Shown here: positions 1 through 5,770 of the stretch, one piece after another
Numbering within the stretch: position 1 is the stretch's first letter
Layout of the letters: every line of letters starts with the position of its first letter
Source: Hespellia sp.
GTDB taxonomy: Bacteria > Bacillota > Clostridia > Lachnospirales > Lachnospiraceae
Direction: 5' to 3'
Assembly: GCA_028689735.1 (NCBI GenBank)
Contig: JAQVCP010000007.1
Location: 20,962-84,961 of the forward strand
DNA length: 64,000 nucleotides
Notes under the pieces: model-generated
What the model was told of the DNA's origin: nothing
Databases searched by the model: none
Seen by the model: only the letters and a program-made list of their open reading frames with translations
Made by a program: the position numbers and the translations under genes

Positions 1-521
1 CTGGTCAGCGCATCCAATGCACCAAGAGGTTCATCCATCAGAATCATCTCCGGCTGATTCACCAGCACTCTTGCAAGGGAGCACCGCTGCCTCATACCAC
101 CGGAAAGCTCGTAGGGCTTCTGCTTCTTGAAGTCCTTCAGCCCGACCAGTTCCAGATATTTGTTGACATTTTCCTCGATTTCCTTTTTGGGAAGTCTTCT
201 TTTCTTCGGTCCGAATGCCACATTATCGTAGATATTCAGCCACGGGTACAGAGGAGGCGTCTGAAACACCACACCTCTCTTCCAGTTTGGACCATTGATG
301 ACTTTTCCACCCATTGTAGCACTTCCCGATGTCGGTTTGTGGAATCCCGCGATAATATTCAGCAAAGTACTCTTTCCACATCCAGAAGGCCCCAGCACAC
401 AGATGAACTCTCCTTTTTTGATATCTAGATTCGCATCCTTCAACGCAAGTACTTTTCCTTTTTCACTGTCATATTCCAGATTGGCATTTTTGATAGATAC
501 AACAATTTCTTCCTGATTCAT
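1..521 (-). CDS. ABC transporter ATP-binding protein, TauB/SsuB/NrtD type (3' end runs off the window)
   Basis: Manual translation from ATG at 521: MNQEEIVVSIKN...GPSGCGKSTLL (Walker A)...LSGGMRQR (signature)...ILMDEPLGALDALT (Walker B); downstream of the SBP and permease genes. Confidence 0.9.
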   Translation of the reverse strand, partial: MNQEEIVVSIKNANLEYDSEKGKVLALKDANLDIKKGEFICVLGPSGCGKSTLLNIIAGFHKPTSGSATMGGKVINGPNWKRGVVFQTPPLYPWLNIYDNVAFGPKKRRLPKKEIEENVNKYLELVGLKDFKKQKPYELSGGMRQRCSLARVLVNQPEMILMDEPLGALDALT

Positions 522-606
522 AGTGGCAGCTCCTTTCTTAATAGACGAACTATTCTGTCAATCATTTGTTTGAAAGACTGTTTTTTCAAATGGTTCTGGT
601 TCATCA

Positions 607-1668
607 CTACTTCGCTGCTTTCACAGCCTCTTCGATGTAGCTTCCGTTTACAGCTTTCTCAAATACGGATTTATCCGGTACTTCTGCGATACTTCCCTGA
701 TCTTTCAGAAATGCTGCGGTATCATACAGGTTCTGAACCAATGCTCCTTTTGCATCGCTGGTTCCAAAATAATCCGCTCCCAGCTGTTCCTCTGCGGTCA
801 GCCAGATCGATCCGCTCATCTGTGACGCTGCCGCATCTGTTGATAATTCCATAGCCTTCGCGATGGTTGAAACCGCTTCATCCTCTGTGTTCTTATACAA
901 ATCGACGGCACCGGATACTGCTTTGATATAGGCAGTCACAAGTTCTGGATTTGCCTCGGCAAATTCGGTTCTTACAAGCTCCACATTAGAGGTCATATAT
1001 CCTGCATCTGCCATATCTGCACTGGTAAGAAGTACTGTTCCATCTCCTAATTCTGTCAGTGTCGGCTCCCATACATATGTCGCATCGATCTGTCCATTCT
1101 GCCATGCCGCATAAATTTCACTGGGCTGCATATCCAGAAGGGTCACGTCACTCTCAGACAATCCTGCCTCTTCCAACGCATGAAGTGCAGAGAAATGTGC
1201 TGTGGATGCAAACGGTGTGGCGATGGTTTTTCCTTTTAAGTCTGCAACGGTTTTTGCCCCGCTCTCATTTCTTGCAACAAAGCTTTCTGTTGCACCTAAT
1301 ACTTCATGTATCCAGATGCATTCCACGCCCAGGTCCTGTGCAATTGCCAGAGTTGCCGGGCAGGAACCTAACAGTCCGAAGTCGATGCTTCCTGAAGCAA
1401 GCGCAGTGTTGACATCTTTTCCAGAATCAAACTGTTTGATTTCTACCTCTACGCCCATCTCCTTTGAAAAGGAATCCATTGCTTTGGCTATACCTTCATC
1501 ATTTGGCATCTCCTGGGTACCTATAACGACTTTTGTTGCTTTTTCTGAGCTTTCAGAGCTTCCGCTTCCAGATGATTTTGATCCGCTGTTTCCGCAGCCG
1601 GAAAGTAATGCCATTGTCATGGTTCCGGCAACAATTGCTGCCAGAATTTTCTTTGTTCTGTTTTTCAT
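607..1668 (-). CDS. ABC substrate-binding lipoprotein, TauA/SsuA-like
   Basis: Lipobox LLSGC, Ser-rich linker, TPFASTAH and DATYVWEP motifs of the TauA/SsuA/NMT1 fold; start re-picked at ATG 1668 behind a GGAG RBS. Confidence 0.85.
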   Translation of the reverse strand: MKNRTKKILAAIVAGTMTMALLSGCGNSGSKSSGSGSSESSEKATKVVIGTQEMPNDEGIAKAMDSFSKEMGVEVEIKQFDSGKDVNTALASGSIDFGLLGSCPATLAIAQDLGVECIWIHEVLGATESFVARNESGAKTVADLKGKTIATPFASTAHFSALHALEEAGLSESDVTLLDMQPSEIYAAWQNGQIDATYVWEPTLTELGDGTVLLTSADMADAGYMTSNVELVRTEFAEANPELVTAYIKAVSGAVDLYKNTEDEAVSTIAKAMELSTDAAASQMSGSIWLTAEEQLGADYFGTSDAKGALVQNLYDTAAFLKDQGSIAEVPDKSVFEKAVNGSYIEEAVKAAK

Positions 1669-1743
1669 AATATGTTCTCCTATACTTCTGTGTATTCGTT
1701 TCAACTTATGTTCTATTGACTCATTCACTTCCAAATGAATCCG

Positions 1744-2517
1744 TTATGCTTTTCCACTCCACGGAACAAATTTCTTTTCGACTAGATTCAACACCACATT
1801 CATCAGAATTCCTGTCACTCCCATAACGATGATTCCCACAAATACGATATCATTTCTCAGCCAGTTCTTTGCATCCAGCACCATCCAGCCGATTCCCACA
1901 TTAGCGGCGACCATCTCAGCAGCAACCAGCGTGGAATATCCAACACCGATGGAAGTCCGAATTCCGGTAAACATGTCCGGCAGGCAAGACGGGAAGATGA
2001 CGGAAAAGAACACCTGCGTCTTACTGGCACCCAATGTGTAGGCACTGTTGATGTGATCCCGGTTAACTCTGACTACTGCTGATACACAGGATACATAGAT
2101 CGGTGCAAAGCAGGCAAGATAAAGCAGTGCTATCTTGGATGCATTATCAATTCCCAATGCCAATACCAGCAGTGTATAATATGCCAGTGGCGGAAGCGGT
2201 CTGTAGAATTCAATGATGGGTTCAAATGCTGCCCTTACCTTTTCACTGAATCCACTGAGCAGTCCCAGTGGAACCGCCGTTACCACCGCAAGTCCAAATG
2301 CCAGGAACAGCCGCTGCATACTGACACCCAAATGCTGTAGGAGCGAATGTCCTTTGTAGTCAATGCAGACACTTAAGAATGCCGCCCAGACTTCATGAGG
2401 TGAGGGAATCAGTTTTTTATCTACCCACCCCAGTTTTGTCGCCACATACCACAATGCCAGAATCAACACCACAACGACAACTGATATCACTTTATTTCCC
2501 GATAGTTTCTTTTTCAT
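1744..2517 (-). CDS. ABC permease, TauC/SsuC type
   Basis: RPLPPLAY, TLGAS (EAA loop) and LVAAEM motifs; six hydrophobic segments; RBS AAGGAG before ATG 2517. Confidence 0.9.
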   Translation of the reverse strand: MKKKLSGNKVISVVVVVLILALWYVATKLGWVDKKLIPSPHEVWAAFLSVCIDYKGHSLLQHLGVSMQRLFLAFGLAVVTAVPLGLLSGFSEKVRAAFEPIIEFYRPLPPLAYYTLLVLALGIDNASKIALLYLACFAPIYVSCVSAVVRVNRDHINSAYTLGASKTQVFFSVIFPSCLPDMFTGIRTSIGVGYSTLVAAEMVAANVGIGWMVLDAKNWLRNDIVFVGIIVMGVTGILMNVVLNLVEKKFVPWSGKA

Positions 2518-2542
2518 TCGCGCTCTCCTTTCACGTTGCTGC

Positions 2543-2878
2543 TTACACTTCATCTGTCAGTTTTCGTGTCCTGACATTGTATGATTTTTCCACAGGACAG
2601 ATGAAGATTTTGCCATCTCCCGGATTACCCGTTGAATTTGCATCCATCAGTGCCTTTACCACTTCATTTTTCCCCTCGTCCGGAACCATGATGTTCAGAA
2701 TCCGCTTTGTCACCAGATTTGTCCTTATCTTCGTGCCGTCAGCCAGAAGAAACGCCACCGGTTTTTTCCCCCGTCCCATGGCTTTCTGACAGGTATATCC
2801 CGGGTAGCCCGCCTCAATCAGCCGCCGCTTGGTCTCTGCCAGTTTTGTGGGCCGGATAATTGCTATAATCTCTACCAT
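2543..2878 (-). CDS. P-II family nitrogen regulator, NifI2-like
   Basis: IIAIIRP, GRGK, STGNPGDGKIFICPV P-II motifs; TKRILNIMVPDE resembles NifI2. Confidence 0.85.
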   Translation of the reverse strand: MVEIIAIIRPTKLAETKRRLIEAGYPGYTCQKAMGRGKKPVAFLLADGTKIRTNLVTKRILNIMVPDEGKNEVVKALMDANSTGNPGDGKIFICPVEKSYNVRTRKLTDEV

Positions 2879-2889
2879 AAAATGACCTC

Positions 2890-3216
2890 CTATAAATCTG
2901 CCGTTTTCGTGCTGACTGTATATGCCTTTTCCACTGGAGTCACAAAGATCCTTCCATCTCCATAGTTACCGTCATCGCCGGTAAATGCATGTTCCATAAT
3001 GATATTTGCGACCGTTTCCTCATCTTCATCCTGAAGAACCATCATCATCATATGTTTTGGTAATTCATCATAAAATGTAGTACCGATCTGAAGCCCCTTC
3101 TGTTTGCCGCGCCCATATACATCCATACGTGTCATTGCCGGGAATCCCGCTTCCAAAAGTGCATCTGCAACTTCATCCGCCTTCTCCGGCCTTACGATTG
3201 CTCTAAGCATTTTCAT
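2890..3216 (-). CDS. P-II family nitrogen regulator, NifI1-like
   Basis: MKMLRAIVRPEK, GRGKQKG, YDELPK, GDGRIFV; YDELPK resembles NifI1; RBS AAGGAGG. Confidence 0.85.
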   Translation of the reverse strand: MKMLRAIVRPEKADEVADALLEAGFPAMTRMDVYGRGKQKGLQIGTTFYDELPKHMMMMVLQDEDEETVANIIMEHAFTGDDGNYGDGRIFVTPVEKAYTVSTKTADL

Positions 3217-3293: not shown

Positions 3294-3328
3294 AAAAAGG
3301 CGAAGAAATCTCTTATGACCTCTTCGCC
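3294..3328 (-). terminator. Intrinsic terminator-like hairpin 2 in the P-II operon leader
   Basis: Minus strand GGCGAAGA...TCTTCGCC followed by TTTTT. Confidence 0.6.
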
Positions 3329-3373
3329 AAAAATAGAAAAGACATCGATTACCATGTAACCGACGTCCTTGTC
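3329..3373 (-). terminator. Intrinsic terminator 1, overlapped by an ANTAR-like hexaloop hairpin
   Basis: Minus strand GACGTCGGTTAC-ATG-GTAATCGATGTC then TTTTCTATTTTT; alternative hairpin GAC-AAGGAC-GTC (3362-3373) uses the 5' arm. Confidence 0.6.
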
Positions 3374-3396: not shown

Positions 3397-3425
3397 ATTG
3401 TATCGGACTCAGCAATTATTTACAA
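3397..3425 (-). promoter_or_regulatory. Sigma-A type promoter of the P-II/ABC operon
   Basis: TTGTAA-N17-TACAAT on the minus strand; 18-bp palindrome GCACAAAG-TT-CTTTGTGC (3436-3453) just upstream. Confidence 0.6.
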
Positions 3426-3552
3426 GAGGTGAATTGCACAAAGTTCTTTGTGCTCCGGCACAATTACTGTTCAAATTTCCTTGCTGACTGGTCGGATTCA
3501 AGCATCAACTGTACTTCTATGGCAAACAGAGTCCAAATGTCCCTTCTGCCTT

Positions 3553-5613
3553 CTACAATAAATAGGACTCAAAAATCTGCCTTACCTTCTCCGTCACATA
3601 GTTGCTGCCGCCTTTGTCCTGGACGTCTTTCACCATGGCGACTACCAACAATGGGTTGGTGGTATCTTCTGCGGTTTCACACACGAACCAGCCGTATTCC
3701 GTGGCTCCTGCTTCCGCCTGGCTGCCTTTTGTCTCCGCAGTTCCCGTCTTCCCCAGCAAGGTATAGCCGGGAATCTGTCCCTTTGCTCCGGTTCCGCTTG
3801 GATCTTCGATCACCTGAATCAAATCCTTTCGGATAATCTCTGTACTTTCGGGTGTGAATACCCCTTCCTTCCAGTAAGAAGCACTCATGCCTTCCTCTTG
3901 TCTGATCACCGGAAGAATCATATTTCCACTATTCACAAAGGCAGAATAAATAGATGCCAGATGAATCGGATTCACCTGAACCTGCCCCTGTCCATAACCG
4001 GTATCTGCCAGCTGAATCTCGTTGTCTATCTTCCCGTCGGTCCCGTAGGTGGATGCCGCCGCATCAATATCCAAAGGTATTTCCTCATCAAATCCAATGG
4101 CTTTTAATTGCTGCTGCATGGTATCGGTTCCGATATCCAGTGCTGCTCTTGCAAAATAAATATTGTCCGAATAGACCAGTGCATTTCTCAGATTCACTTC
4201 ATCGCCGTAATCCGTCAGGGTGGTTACATGATAATCGCCCCAACTGGCATCCTTCTGCCAGCTCAGTCCAACGTTTCCCTTATTCTCATCTGGATTGAGC
4301 AGTCCGGTGCTGACACCGATTGCTCCAATCACCGGCTTAAAGGTAGAACCGGGAACCCAGGCTGACGCGTACCGATTGGTCAGTGGCTGGTTCACATCGT
4401 TGTTAAGTTCCTCCCAGCGCGTGCCGGACATTCCAAGAATAAATTCGTTTGGGTCGTAGCTCGGTGTGCTTACCAGTGCTAACAGCTCGCCTGTCTTTGG
4501 ATTCATGGCGACCACGCTGCTTACATCCTCTGCAAAAAGCTGGTAAATGGTCTGCTGCAGATTTGCATCAATGGTCACATGTACATCGCTTCCATCTGCC
4601 GGAGCTGTACTTGCAATGGTCTCCTGTCTCACTCCATCTTCACTTTCAATGTAAATATCACTGCCGGAGGCTGCTTTCAGTGTACTCTCGTATCCCCGCT
4701 CCAGTCCCGCTTTTCCGATGACACTGCTTGCAGCATACCCATCCCCGCTTTTCTTCTCCAGCTCTTCTGCGCTGATTGCCTGCGTATAACCAGTAAGATG
4801 CCCTGTTGACTCCTTGAGCGGATAAACGCGGTCTGTCACATTGGAAATCATGACCCCCGGTATGGCAAGCAATGCATCCTGAGTAACGTTATCATCAAAC
4901 GCCACTGCTTTGATCGGGACAAAGGTATCATCCTTGACATAGGAAGCACTCAGACTCGCCTCAATATCTGCCGGATCCACACCCAGAATGGAGCCGATCT
5001 GTGCCAGTGCATCCTGATGATTCGCCTCCATCTTACCCGGAATCAGACCAACCTGTGCCACAATTCCCTCCTGGGTCAGTGCCACATTGTTGCGATCATA
5101 AAGCTGGCCACGCCGGGCCTCTGTGTTGCTGATTCTGACCTTTTCATTCTCTCCCAGTTCCGGGAAGATATCCGAAGAAGACCACACTACTCTGTAGATA
5201 CCGTCCTCATCTTTTTTCAACTCCATCTCATTATCAAAAGATACTTCTCCCGCACTGGTGTCCATCTTCATTTGATATGAAACGCTTTCTTTTTTATCGT
5301 TTTTTCGCTTCTCATCTGCCGTGACTGTTGCTTTGATATTGGCAGCCTCGATTCCTTCATAAATGTTCCGGTTTCGTTCCGTATATGTCTCCTCAGATAC
5401 ATTTTTTTTCGTGTCTGCATCAAGAAGCTGGTACATTTCCTCATATTTTCCAGCGGACAGAAGCTTGAAATACTGCTTTGCCACCTCCTCCGGATTGGAC
5501 TTCTCCTTGTTTAGAAAAAGTACAATGCCTGCCACTGCGGCAATCACTATGGCTGCAGCTGCAATTGTCAGGACAATAATTTTCATTTTCCCTTTGTTTT
5601 TCATTCTATCCAT
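3553..5613 (-). CDS. Class B penicillin-binding transpeptidase with NTF2-like (MecA_N) N-terminal domain
   Basis: N-terminal TM anchor; GSTFK (SxxK), YSDN (SxN) and GKTG catalytic motifs; RGQLYDRN dimerisation motif. Confidence 0.9.
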   Translation of the reverse strand: MDRMKNKGKMKIIVLTIAAAAIVIAAVAGIVLFLNKEKSNPEEVAKQYFKLLSAGKYEEMYQLLDADTKKNVSEETYTERNRNIYEGIEAANIKATVTADEKRKNDKKESVSYQMKMDTSAGEVSFDNEMELKKDEDGIYRVVWSSSDIFPELGENEKVRISNTEARRGQLYDRNNVALTQEGIVAQVGLIPGKMEANHQDALAQIGSILGVDPADIEASLSASYVKDDTFVPIKAVAFDDNVTQDALLAIPGVMISNVTDRVYPLKESTGHLTGYTQAISAEELEKKSGDGYAASSVIGKAGLERGYESTLKAASGSDIYIESEDGVRQETIASTAPADGSDVHVTIDANLQQTIYQLFAEDVSSVVAMNPKTGELLALVSTPSYDPNEFILGMSGTRWEELNNDVNQPLTNRYASAWVPGSTFKPVIGAIGVSTGLLNPDENKGNVGLSWQKDASWGDYHVTTLTDYGDEVNLRNALVYSDNIYFARAALDIGTDTMQQQLKAIGFDEEIPLDIDAAASTYGTDGKIDNEIQLADTGYGQGQVQVNPIHLASIYSAFVNSGNMILPVIRQEEGMSASYWKEGVFTPESTEIIRKDLIQVIEDPSGTGAKGQIPGYTLLGKTGTAETKGSQAEAGATEYGWFVCETAEDTTNPLLVVAMVKDVQDKGGSNYVTEKVRQIFESYLL

Positions 5614-5770
5614 ACTTCCCCTCCTGGTTCTTTTCATTTATACATTATACTAACACAATTCCGGCCTTTTATCATCTCTATATTCCTTTCTGCTGCTAGT
5701 GTGACACTAGATTCTATTTCTCCCCACATTTCGCTCTATTGCGTCTTTTTGTAAAATATTAAGATATAAA

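Follow-up and report, generated by a model that had tools for sequence, protein, structure and literature searches.

A NifI1/NifI2-type P-II pair heads a taurine-type ABC importer operon in a Lachnospiraceae genome without nitrogenase genes

Gene content of the locus

The operon described here lies at the left end of a 64,000-nucleotide stretch of DNA from Hespellia sp. (Lachnospiraceae; assembly GCA_028689735.1, contig JAQVCP010000007.1). This whole stretch, hereafter the window, corresponds to C161:20962-84961 of a 3.69-Mb draft genome that is 97% complete (C, G and L numbers are our handles for contigs, genomes and loci). Five genes, all on the minus strand and read from position 3216 to position 1, fall within the window: two tandem P-II genes, followed by tauC-, tauA- and tauB-like genes for an ATP-binding cassette (ABC) importer. 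A sequence-only reading of the window had described two co-oriented, tightly spaced P-II genes with permease, substrate-binding protein (SBP) and ATPase genes, and all five are confirmed on this strand. The motifs it cited, GRGKQKG..YDELPK and TKRILNIMVPDE..GNPGDGKIF, are present, and its right-hand coordinate, 3216, is the exact start codon of the first P-II gene. It left the strand unstated; as the operon reads from right to left, the region to the left of the window is downstream. The genes are as follows.

2890..3216, minus strand: P-IIa, NifI1-subfamily P-II protein, 108 amino acids (aa), Pfam P-II 84.6 bits
2543..2878, minus strand: P-IIb, NifI2-subfamily P-II protein with a shortened T-loop, 111 aa, Pfam P-II 69.7 bits
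1744..2553, minus strand: TauC-like ABC permease, Pfam BPD_transp_1, start uncertain (2553 or 2517)
607..1668, minus strand: TauA-like substrate-binding lipoprotein, lipobox LLSGC, NCBIfam TIGR01729 (taurine binding protein)
1..521, minus strand: 5' part of a tauB-like ABC ATPase gene, cut by the window edge; the full protein has 269 aa and the gene ends at C161:20673

P-IIa starts at an ATG, opens with MKMLRAIV and is preceded by the ribosome binding site (RBS) AAAGGAGG; an open reading frame finder gives a longer frame of 133 aa, the first 25 residues of which have no P-II match. The two P-II genes are spaced by 11 nucleotides (nt), and the RBS of P-IIb, AGGAGG, overlaps the stop codon of P-IIa. 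The first ATG of the permease gene in turn overlaps the end of P-IIb by 11 nt. To the left of the window, the ATPase gene is followed with an overlap of 4 nt by a gene for a TauE/SafE-family membrane protein, and 25 nt beyond this tauE gene lies a gene for a PucR-family regulator.

The P-II pair belongs to the NifI1 and NifI2 subfamilies

To place both proteins among the P-II subfamilies, maximum-likelihood (ML) trees (LG+C20) were built from 59 and then 82 P-II sequences, labelled by genomic context. These included 42 nif-linked sequences, the two chains of PDB 9p1x among them, and eight GlnB/GlnK sequences; the references were GlnB and GlnK from Escherichia coli, GlnK from the Hespellia genome (the host genome), three other GlnB-like proteins, Archaeoglobus GlnB-1 and both 9p1x chains. 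PDB 9p1x is the NifDK-NifI1,2 supercomplex of Methanosarcina acetivorans (bioRxiv 10.1101/2025.09.09.675011). P-IIa falls inside the NifI1 clade and P-IIb inside the NifI2 clade, with a support of 99/97 each, while GlnB/GlnK form a separate group (97/89). The sequences linked to taurine genes form one subclade per subfamily (NifI1 100/94, NifI2 100/99), nested among the nif-linked ones, which implies that the pair moved as a unit.

Pairwise comparisons agree with this placement for P-IIa, whose top match among solved structures is 9p1x_H, the NifI1 chain of M. acetivorans, with 101.6 bits against at most 67 for any GlnK or GlnB. Compared with nif-linked proteins from 11 loci in the same family, P-IIa is 58-62% identical to NifI1 and P-IIb is 46-49% identical to NifI2, and homologues of P-IIb at 45% identity or less sit in nifH-P-II-P-II-nifD-nifK operons. 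At position 51, where GlnB and GlnK carry the T-loop residue Tyr51, the P-IIa clade has V or T and the P-IIb clade I or L. The GlnB/GlnK equivalogs of NCBIfam score only 44-50 bits against the two proteins and do not reach their cut-offs of 181-202; NCBIfam has no model for the tau-linked P-II clade. The sequence-only reading had assigned the pair to the NifI1/NifI2 subtype on the basis of motif resemblance, and the trees bear this out. The homology evidence thus identifies the pair with high confidence as NifI1/NifI2 by descent.

The host genome has no nitrogenase

NifI proteins bind NifDK and are released by 2-oxoglutarate and ATP, a function that cannot apply here since the genome lacks NifDK. 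Pfam PF00148 (Oxidored_nitro, covering NifD/K/E/N) has no match in the 97%-complete genome, nor is there a convincing NifH in it, the best PF00142 (Fer4_NifH) match of 42.9 bits being far too weak. The P-II pair is not located between nifH and nifD; its flanks are a penicillin-binding protein (PBP) gene and tauCAB-tauE-pucR. No nifHDK operon follows. The host is a gut Firmicute that cannot fix nitrogen. It does possess a separate glnK-amtB locus on C160, where a fourth P-II gene (95 bits) is found directly upstream of an ammonium-transporter-like gene.

As an alternative to the importer as partner of the pair, a nitrogenase-like enzyme encoded just left of the window had been proposed. This is refuted by the genes in that flank together with the absence of PF00148 and the weakness of PF00142: the 16 kb on that side contain the remainder of tauB, then tauE and pucR, and beyond pucR spoVAA/AB, a MATE gene, spoVAD/AE, a Na/Pi-PhoU transporter gene and an amylase gene.

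The pair travels with tauCAB

Besides the host genome, the tau-type P-IIb subclade was found at L013, L015, L017, L038, L055-L057, L100-L102 and L183-L185, giving 14 independent tau-type loci with P-IIb identities of 51-100%. At all 14, the I1-I2 pair is located directly upstream of tauC-tauA-tauB, L101 alone having an intervening Amidohydro_3 gene. Ten of the 14 additionally have an adjacent class-III aminotransferase gene (Toa) and Fe-alcohol dehydrogenase gene (TauF), and TauE and the PucR regulator occur in most of them, in varying order and orientation. One locus comes from a Thomasclavelia metagenome-assembled genome (MAG); the others are from Lachnospiraceae or Eubacteriales MAGs or from metagenome or run assemblies. 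The pair and tauCAB occur together across at least two bacterial classes. That the same arrangement is found at all 14 loci suggests that the sensor has been re-used to control taurine uptake as a nitrogen source.

The tau type is rare in species-representative genomes. In a family sample of one genome per genus (300 genera), 16 genomes had a match: 11 have the pair in nifH-I1-I2-nifDKEN, two are of the taurine type (the host and G073), i.e., 2 of 300 genera, and three have it beside a different NitT/TauT-type ABC importer. The nifH-I1-I2-nifD order was seen at these 11 family-level loci and at 25 phylum-level loci, and the phylum sample of 400 genomes contained no further tau-type locus. A scan of genome contigs with P-IIb gave three tau-type loci, the patterns being too specific, and a scan of metagenome contigs with an alignment of tau-type P-IIb gave, among the matches listed, only generic P-II proteins of at most 42% identity. 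The tau type nevertheless recurs in metagenomic data: 57 protein clusters have at least 51% identity to P-IIb, nearly all of them from ENA metagenome assemblies or Logan assemblies of public sequencing runs.

The different importer belongs to a second clade of NifI1/NifI2-like pairs (L020, L047, L048 and L050), in which the SBP is 23-29% identical to the host TauA. The ABC importer is the sole partner that this clade and the tau loci have in common. Other neighbours of the second clade are unrelated to taurine and include LarA-like, AcnX, M20 peptidase and amidohydrolase genes. A separate observation was made at L059, a Candidatus Omnitrophota MAG, where one contig carries NifI1/NifI2-like pairs, or fragments of pairs, at two separate places; the seed set used detected neither nif nor tau genes in their vicinity. 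At L066 (G103:C32), genes for a glycyl-radical enzyme and its activase are followed by Toa-like, tauCAB and TauF-like genes, and there are no P-II genes. Taurine seems to be used there for sulfur or sulfite rather than for nitrogen, and a taurine cluster of this kind without P-II genes argues that the pair goes with nitrogen assimilation. In the open-access literature, no description was found of NifI-type proteins with taurine or ABC importers, nor of PII with tauABC.

Both P-II genes are under purifying selection. Between tau loci, synonymous divergence (dS) is saturated, non-synonymous divergence (dN) is 0.13-0.40, and dN/dS is at most 0.2 for both genes. This bears on the possibility that they are decaying leftovers from a nif cluster that has been lost, or GlnB/GlnK paralogues of the ordinary kind with a general role, so that their adjacency to tauCAB would be meaningless. 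The frequency of nif-linked pairs in the same family (11 of the 16 genomes with a match) would fit a remnant, as would a third NifI1-like gene in the host genome that is apparently interrupted by a repeat. A remnant would, however, hardly be intact in both genes at 14 loci at such divergence and constraint, form well-supported subclades of its own with a specific T-loop change, or travel with tauCAB across bacterial classes, while neither the tree nor the NCBIfam scores of about 50 bits allow membership of GlnB/GlnK. This explanation is largely refuted and is regarded as very improbable.

The importer and the taurine pathway

For all three importer components, the best NCBIfam match is the taurine system. 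The SBP matches E. coli TauA (PDB 6SSY) with 151.6 bits and, of its ligand residues, keeps Q30, S60, G61, G79, E106, T132 and W176 and has Asn for Asp205. These residues were defined in E. coli TauA, in which loss of E106 abolishes taurine binding (PMC6906117).

A pathway by which gut anaerobes take nitrogen from taurine and excrete isethionate has been described (PMC6616044); P-II proteins are not mentioned in the text or figure legends of that paper. The host genome encodes all four of its functions, i.e., Toa, TauF, the TauE exporter and TauABC. The toa and tauF genes are located away from the operon, on contig C36. The aminotransferase encoded there matches the taurine:2-oxoglutarate aminotransferase Toa of Bifidobacterium kashiwanohense (PDB 6JIX) with 736 bits and the dehydrogenase matches PDB 6JKO with 589 bits, the latter being the sulfoacetaldehyde reductase BkTauF (PMC6616044). 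The assignment to taurine nitrogen assimilation is therefore made with high confidence. The operon makes up half of a regulon for this pathway, whose enzymes Toa and TauF are encoded on another contig. The four functions are probably co-regulated. Directly downstream of pucR, at L004:13597-13707 (C161:18596-18706), a remnant encoding the C-terminal 37 residues of a TauF-like Fe-alcohol dehydrogenase is present, 84% identical to the L013 enzyme, which suggests that toa-tauF was once in the operon and has since been deleted.

The third P-II gene of the host genome stands alone. It is of the NifI1 type, follows toa-tauF and precedes a gene for a 559-aa Amidohydro_3 protein, and it is split over two contigs (C36:15843-16040 and C2:19395-19511). 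The 125 nt past the break recur unchanged at the end of contig C4, so that a repeat resembling an insertion sequence probably interrupts the gene. The same pairing of a lone P-II gene and an amidohydrolase gene is found in L067, with both lone P-II proteins grouping in a clade of their own (100/99). The 559-aa amidohydrolase matches Pfam Amidohydro_3, a domain family in which a 2026 preprint reports metal-dependent bile salt hydrolases that are specific for taurine (PMC13081988).

Leader, candidate operator and candidate nitrogen regulon

The region between the operon and the gene upstream contains the following features.

3448..3463, no strand assigned: 16-bp palindrome TTGTGC-N4-GCACAA, TTGTGCTCCGGCACAA, candidate operator, about 20 bp upstream of the -35 element
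3397..3425, minus strand: sigma-70-like promoter TTGTAA-17-TACAAT, 9 of 12 matches, a consensus match only
3362..3373, minus strand: mini-hairpin GAC-AAGGAC-GTC, hexaloop with A1 and G4, resembling an ANTAR substrate; its 3' arm lies within the 5' arm of terminator 1
3338..3370, minus strand: leader terminator 1, a 15-pair stem followed by a T-run
3299..3328, minus strand: leader terminator 2, a 12-pair stem followed by TTTTT

The palindrome is also present upstream of the P-II pair in six other tau-type loci (L013, L015, L017, L038, L055 and L056) and upstream of toa-tauF in the host genome (C36:12942). Its core, TGTGC-N4-GCACA, has six exact matches in the 3.69-Mb genome. The protein binding it is probably the PucR-type regulator. 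The consensus boxes for TnrA/GlnR, CodY and CRP do not fit TTGTGC-N4-GCACAA.

Three terminator-like sites were observed against 0.2 expected in shuffled sequences, and the leader fold has a z-score of -5.9. A hexaloop hairpin with A1 and G4 overlapping a terminator is likewise found in the homologous leaders. Within the host genome, the hexaloop RAC-AARGNC-GTY is combined with a terminator in seven leaders, listed here with their positions.

C164:8433: glnA-ANTAR (glnA-nitR)
C160:41426: glnK-amtB
C88:68569: type III glutamine synthetase (glnN)
C18:17281: sodium:alanine symporter (agcS)
C102:6442: C-N hydrolase
C36:15654: third P-II gene
window 3362-3373: tau operon

With a relaxed hexaloop pattern, 8 of 18 matches (seven distinct loci) are leaders of nitrogen genes in which the hairpin overlaps a terminator. 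Only one hexaloop hairpin per leader was identified with confidence. The one ANTAR-domain gene of the genome is located directly after glnA. These elements make the operon a candidate member of the nitrogen regulon, and of a putative ANTAR regulon, in which the glnA-linked ANTAR protein probably antiterminates the leader. An Rfam scan of the leader and operon gave no known RNA family, only one spurious sub-threshold match to a long non-coding RNA.

Upstream of these elements, at window 3553-5637 on the minus strand, lies the PBP gene, which encodes a 694-aa class B PBP with a MecA_N (NTF2-like) domain. Its top NCBIfam match is enterococcal PBP4(5) with 558 bits, under the cut-off of 700.

Loops and effector pockets of the pair

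The T-loop of P-IIa is 4 aa shorter than that of GlnB (14 against 18 residues). The protein keeps Q39, K58 and the B-loop, while R101 and R103 are replaced by T and S. These features are common to all NifI1-type proteins compared, i.e., those of the nif loci, the tau loci and the second ABC class, in which Q39, K58 and the B-loop GDG(K/R)IF are kept and T and S occupy the C-loop positions R101 and R103. NifI2-type proteins, on the other hand, mostly have K39 and keep R103, and P-IIb has K39 and R103 like the NifI2 of nif loci. In the 2:1 heterotrimer of M. acetivorans, the pocket that is always occupied is formed by the T- and B-loops of NifI1 and the C-loop of NifI2 (bioRxiv 10.1101/2025.09.09.675011). 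The complementary Q39/R103 pattern of the pocket, as in this heterotrimer, argues for the same heteromeric architecture, and P-IIa and P-IIb are accordingly predicted to form a heteromer.

The two types of NifI2 differ in their T-loop, which measures 14-18 aa in the tau clade against 26-33 aa in nif-linked proteins and is thus 12-15 residues shorter. In the M. acetivorans structure, the T-loop of NifI2 contacts NifD and has been called a specificity determinant (bioRxiv 10.1101/2025.09.09.675011), so its shortening in tau NifI2 fits a change of target. By its genomic context and by this T-loop, the pair is not a functional NifI.

Proposed control of taurine uptake

The operon would represent the uptake-and-export half of the pathway, comprising the TauABC importer, a TauE-family isethionate exporter and a PucR-family regulator, headed by the P-II pair. 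P-IIa and P-IIb would assemble into a NifI-like heterotrimer, probably in a 2:1 ratio, that binds either ADP or MgATP and 2-oxoglutarate. When nitrogen is sufficient, 2-oxoglutarate would be low and the ADP-bound complex would sit on the cytoplasmic face of TauBC, blocking import. When nitrogen is limiting, high 2-oxoglutarate together with ATP would make the complex release TauBC and taurine would enter. Toa would then transfer the amino group of taurine to 2-oxoglutarate, yielding glutamate, TauF would convert the resulting sulfoacetaldehyde into isethionate, and TauE would export the latter. Transcription would be controlled separately, by the operator that the operon has in common with the unlinked toa-tauF genes and by a leader terminator with the hexaloop hairpin of nitrogen genes.

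TauBC is the presumed target because the importer is the only invariant neighbour of the pair and the only partner common to the second NifI-like clade. The sequence-only reading had suggested that the pair may gate an importer for taurine, organosulfonates or other nitrogen compounds, or a nitrogenase-like enzyme. The first part has held, in that the importer is taurine-type and its gating by the pair is the interpretation best supported; the second has fallen away. On balance, we lean towards a NifI-derived heterotrimer that gates TauBC according to the 2-oxoglutarate and ATP/ADP that it senses.

Possibly, the pair acts on a pathway enzyme or regulator instead, i.e., Toa, TauF, the PucR-type regulator or the ANTAR protein. 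NifI proteins do act on an enzyme, NifDK, and Toa uses the P-II effector 2-oxoglutarate. Furthermore, the pair directly follows toa-tauF in several loci, and a single NifI1-like P-II gene lies between the tauF and amidohydrolase genes on C36/C2 and in L067. Gene neighbourhood speaks against such a target: tauCAB is invariant in 14 of 14 loci, while Toa and TauF are not adjacent to the pair in the host genome and L038, PucR is missing near L015 and L102, and the second NifI-like clade has only the ABC importer in common with the tau loci. An enzyme or regulator as target is therefore considered unlikely.

Several observations weigh against gating of a taurine importer by a NifI pair. The pairwise scores of P-IIb are ambiguous (69.8 bits for Archaeoglobus GlnB against 67.9 for the NifI2 chain of 9p1x), so its assignment to NifI2 rests on the tree and on its bacterial nif-linked relatives. 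Toa and TauF are encoded outside the operon in the host genome; what connects them to it is the candidate operator and the leader type that both loci share, together with the gene order in other genomes. A regulatory extension like the C-terminal domain of NrtC is missing from TauB, which implies that a putative P-II contact would have to involve the permease or the core of the ATPase. Lastly, the importer components score under the NCBIfam equivalog cut-offs (TauA 222 against 304, TauC 230.8 against 342 and TauB 249 against 357 bits), and Asp205, the taurine-selectivity residue of E. coli TauA, is Asn in the host SBP. It is also Asn in 8 of 10 other TauA proteins compared that are linked to a P-II pair, and T in L101.

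The scores and the Asn residue would also fit an importer whose substrate is a different nitrogen compound or sulfonate, such as an aminosulfonate other than taurine or a taurine with an N-substituent, with the P-II pair gating that uptake. Some loci moreover add an Amidohydro_3 gene, a kind reported to hydrolyse taurine-conjugated bile acids (PMC13081988). Such a ligand is nonetheless improbable, as Q30, E106, T132 and W176 are conserved in the SBP, the taurine system is the best family match for all three components, and the cluster holds close homologues of the biochemically characterised Toa and TauF. With the ligand residues kept and Asp205 replaced, taurine is the most likely, if unproven, ligand of the SBP.

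In a broader sense, NifI-type P-II proteins could constitute a portable heterotrimeric clamp responding to nitrogen status. They would have left nitrogenase for NitT/TauT-type importers on two or more occasions, and on one occasion a lone NifI1-type gene would have come to lie beside a gene for a candidate bile-salt amidohydrolase specific for taurine; for taurine uptake, the heterotrimer would act as a physical lock on TauBC. Import would then depend on the availability of an amino acceptor, as 2-oxoglutarate, the metabolite sensed, is at the same time a co-substrate of Toa, the first enzyme. This generalisation is tentative, and we would not yet count on it. NifI1/NifI2 has been presented as dedicated to nitrogenase and as the sole P-II complex built from different subunits (bioRxiv 10.1101/2025.09.09.675011). 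If the proposal is true, the tau pair would provide the first heteromeric P-II-ABC transporter complex. A conserved and selected NifI clade in bacteria without nitrogenase genes would show how a sensor is re-aimed, with the core and pockets kept and one loop trimmed. It would also add a post-translational layer of control to the bacterial use of host taurine, in a pathway that makes isethionate in the gut and connects to the deconjugation of taurine bile acids. Its four or five proteins would make a manageable set for in vitro work.

Comparison with known systems

At the level of transcription, the closest parallel is ANTAR antitermination, as in clostridial glnA-nitR, NasR/NasT and EutV. The host likewise has an ANTAR gene after glnA and a hexaloop hairpin (A1, G4) that overlaps a terminator. 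Described ANTAR substrates consist of two hexaloop hairpins, the second overlapping the terminator, whereas the host leaders have one confident hairpin.

At the level of transport, GlnK-AmtB is another case of a P-II gene that is co-transcribed with a nitrogen-source transporter, which is blocked at nitrogen sufficiency. It differs from the tau pair in P-II subfamily, in consisting of a single P-II gene and in acting on a channel rather than on an ABC importer. One ABC importer under P-II control is NrtBCD, the nitrate importer of cyanobacteria and a member of the related nitrate/sulfonate/taurine group. It is bound and locked by canonical PII (PMC10945777), a control that responds to 2-oxoglutarate and serves as the working model for the tau pair. 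The regulator of NrtBCD is, however, a canonical homotrimeric GlnB that is encoded elsewhere and binds NrtC, which has a C-terminal regulatory domain, whereas the tau system has a NifI-type pair encoded in the operon and a TauB without an extra domain.

The pathway genes are the same as those of the TauABC-Toa-IsfD/TauF-IsfE clusters of Klebsiella oxytoca, Chromohalobacter salexigens and B. kashiwanohense (PMC6616044). In the host, by contrast, the transporter genes are preceded by a NifI-type pair and lie at a different locus from toa-tauF.

The pair itself is most similar to the NifI1/NifI2 switch-off pair of Methanococcus maripaludis and M. acetivorans (PDB 9P1X). Both have the same two subfamilies in the same I1-I2 gene order, the same short NifI1 T-loop and the same effector pattern, with Q39 on I1 and the C-loop Arg on I2. 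Unlike the switch-off pair, the tau pair is not located between nifH and nifD, its genome lacks NifD/K and its partner is an ABC importer; and unlike in nif NifI2, the T-loop of tau NifI2 has been cut back to the length found in GlnB.

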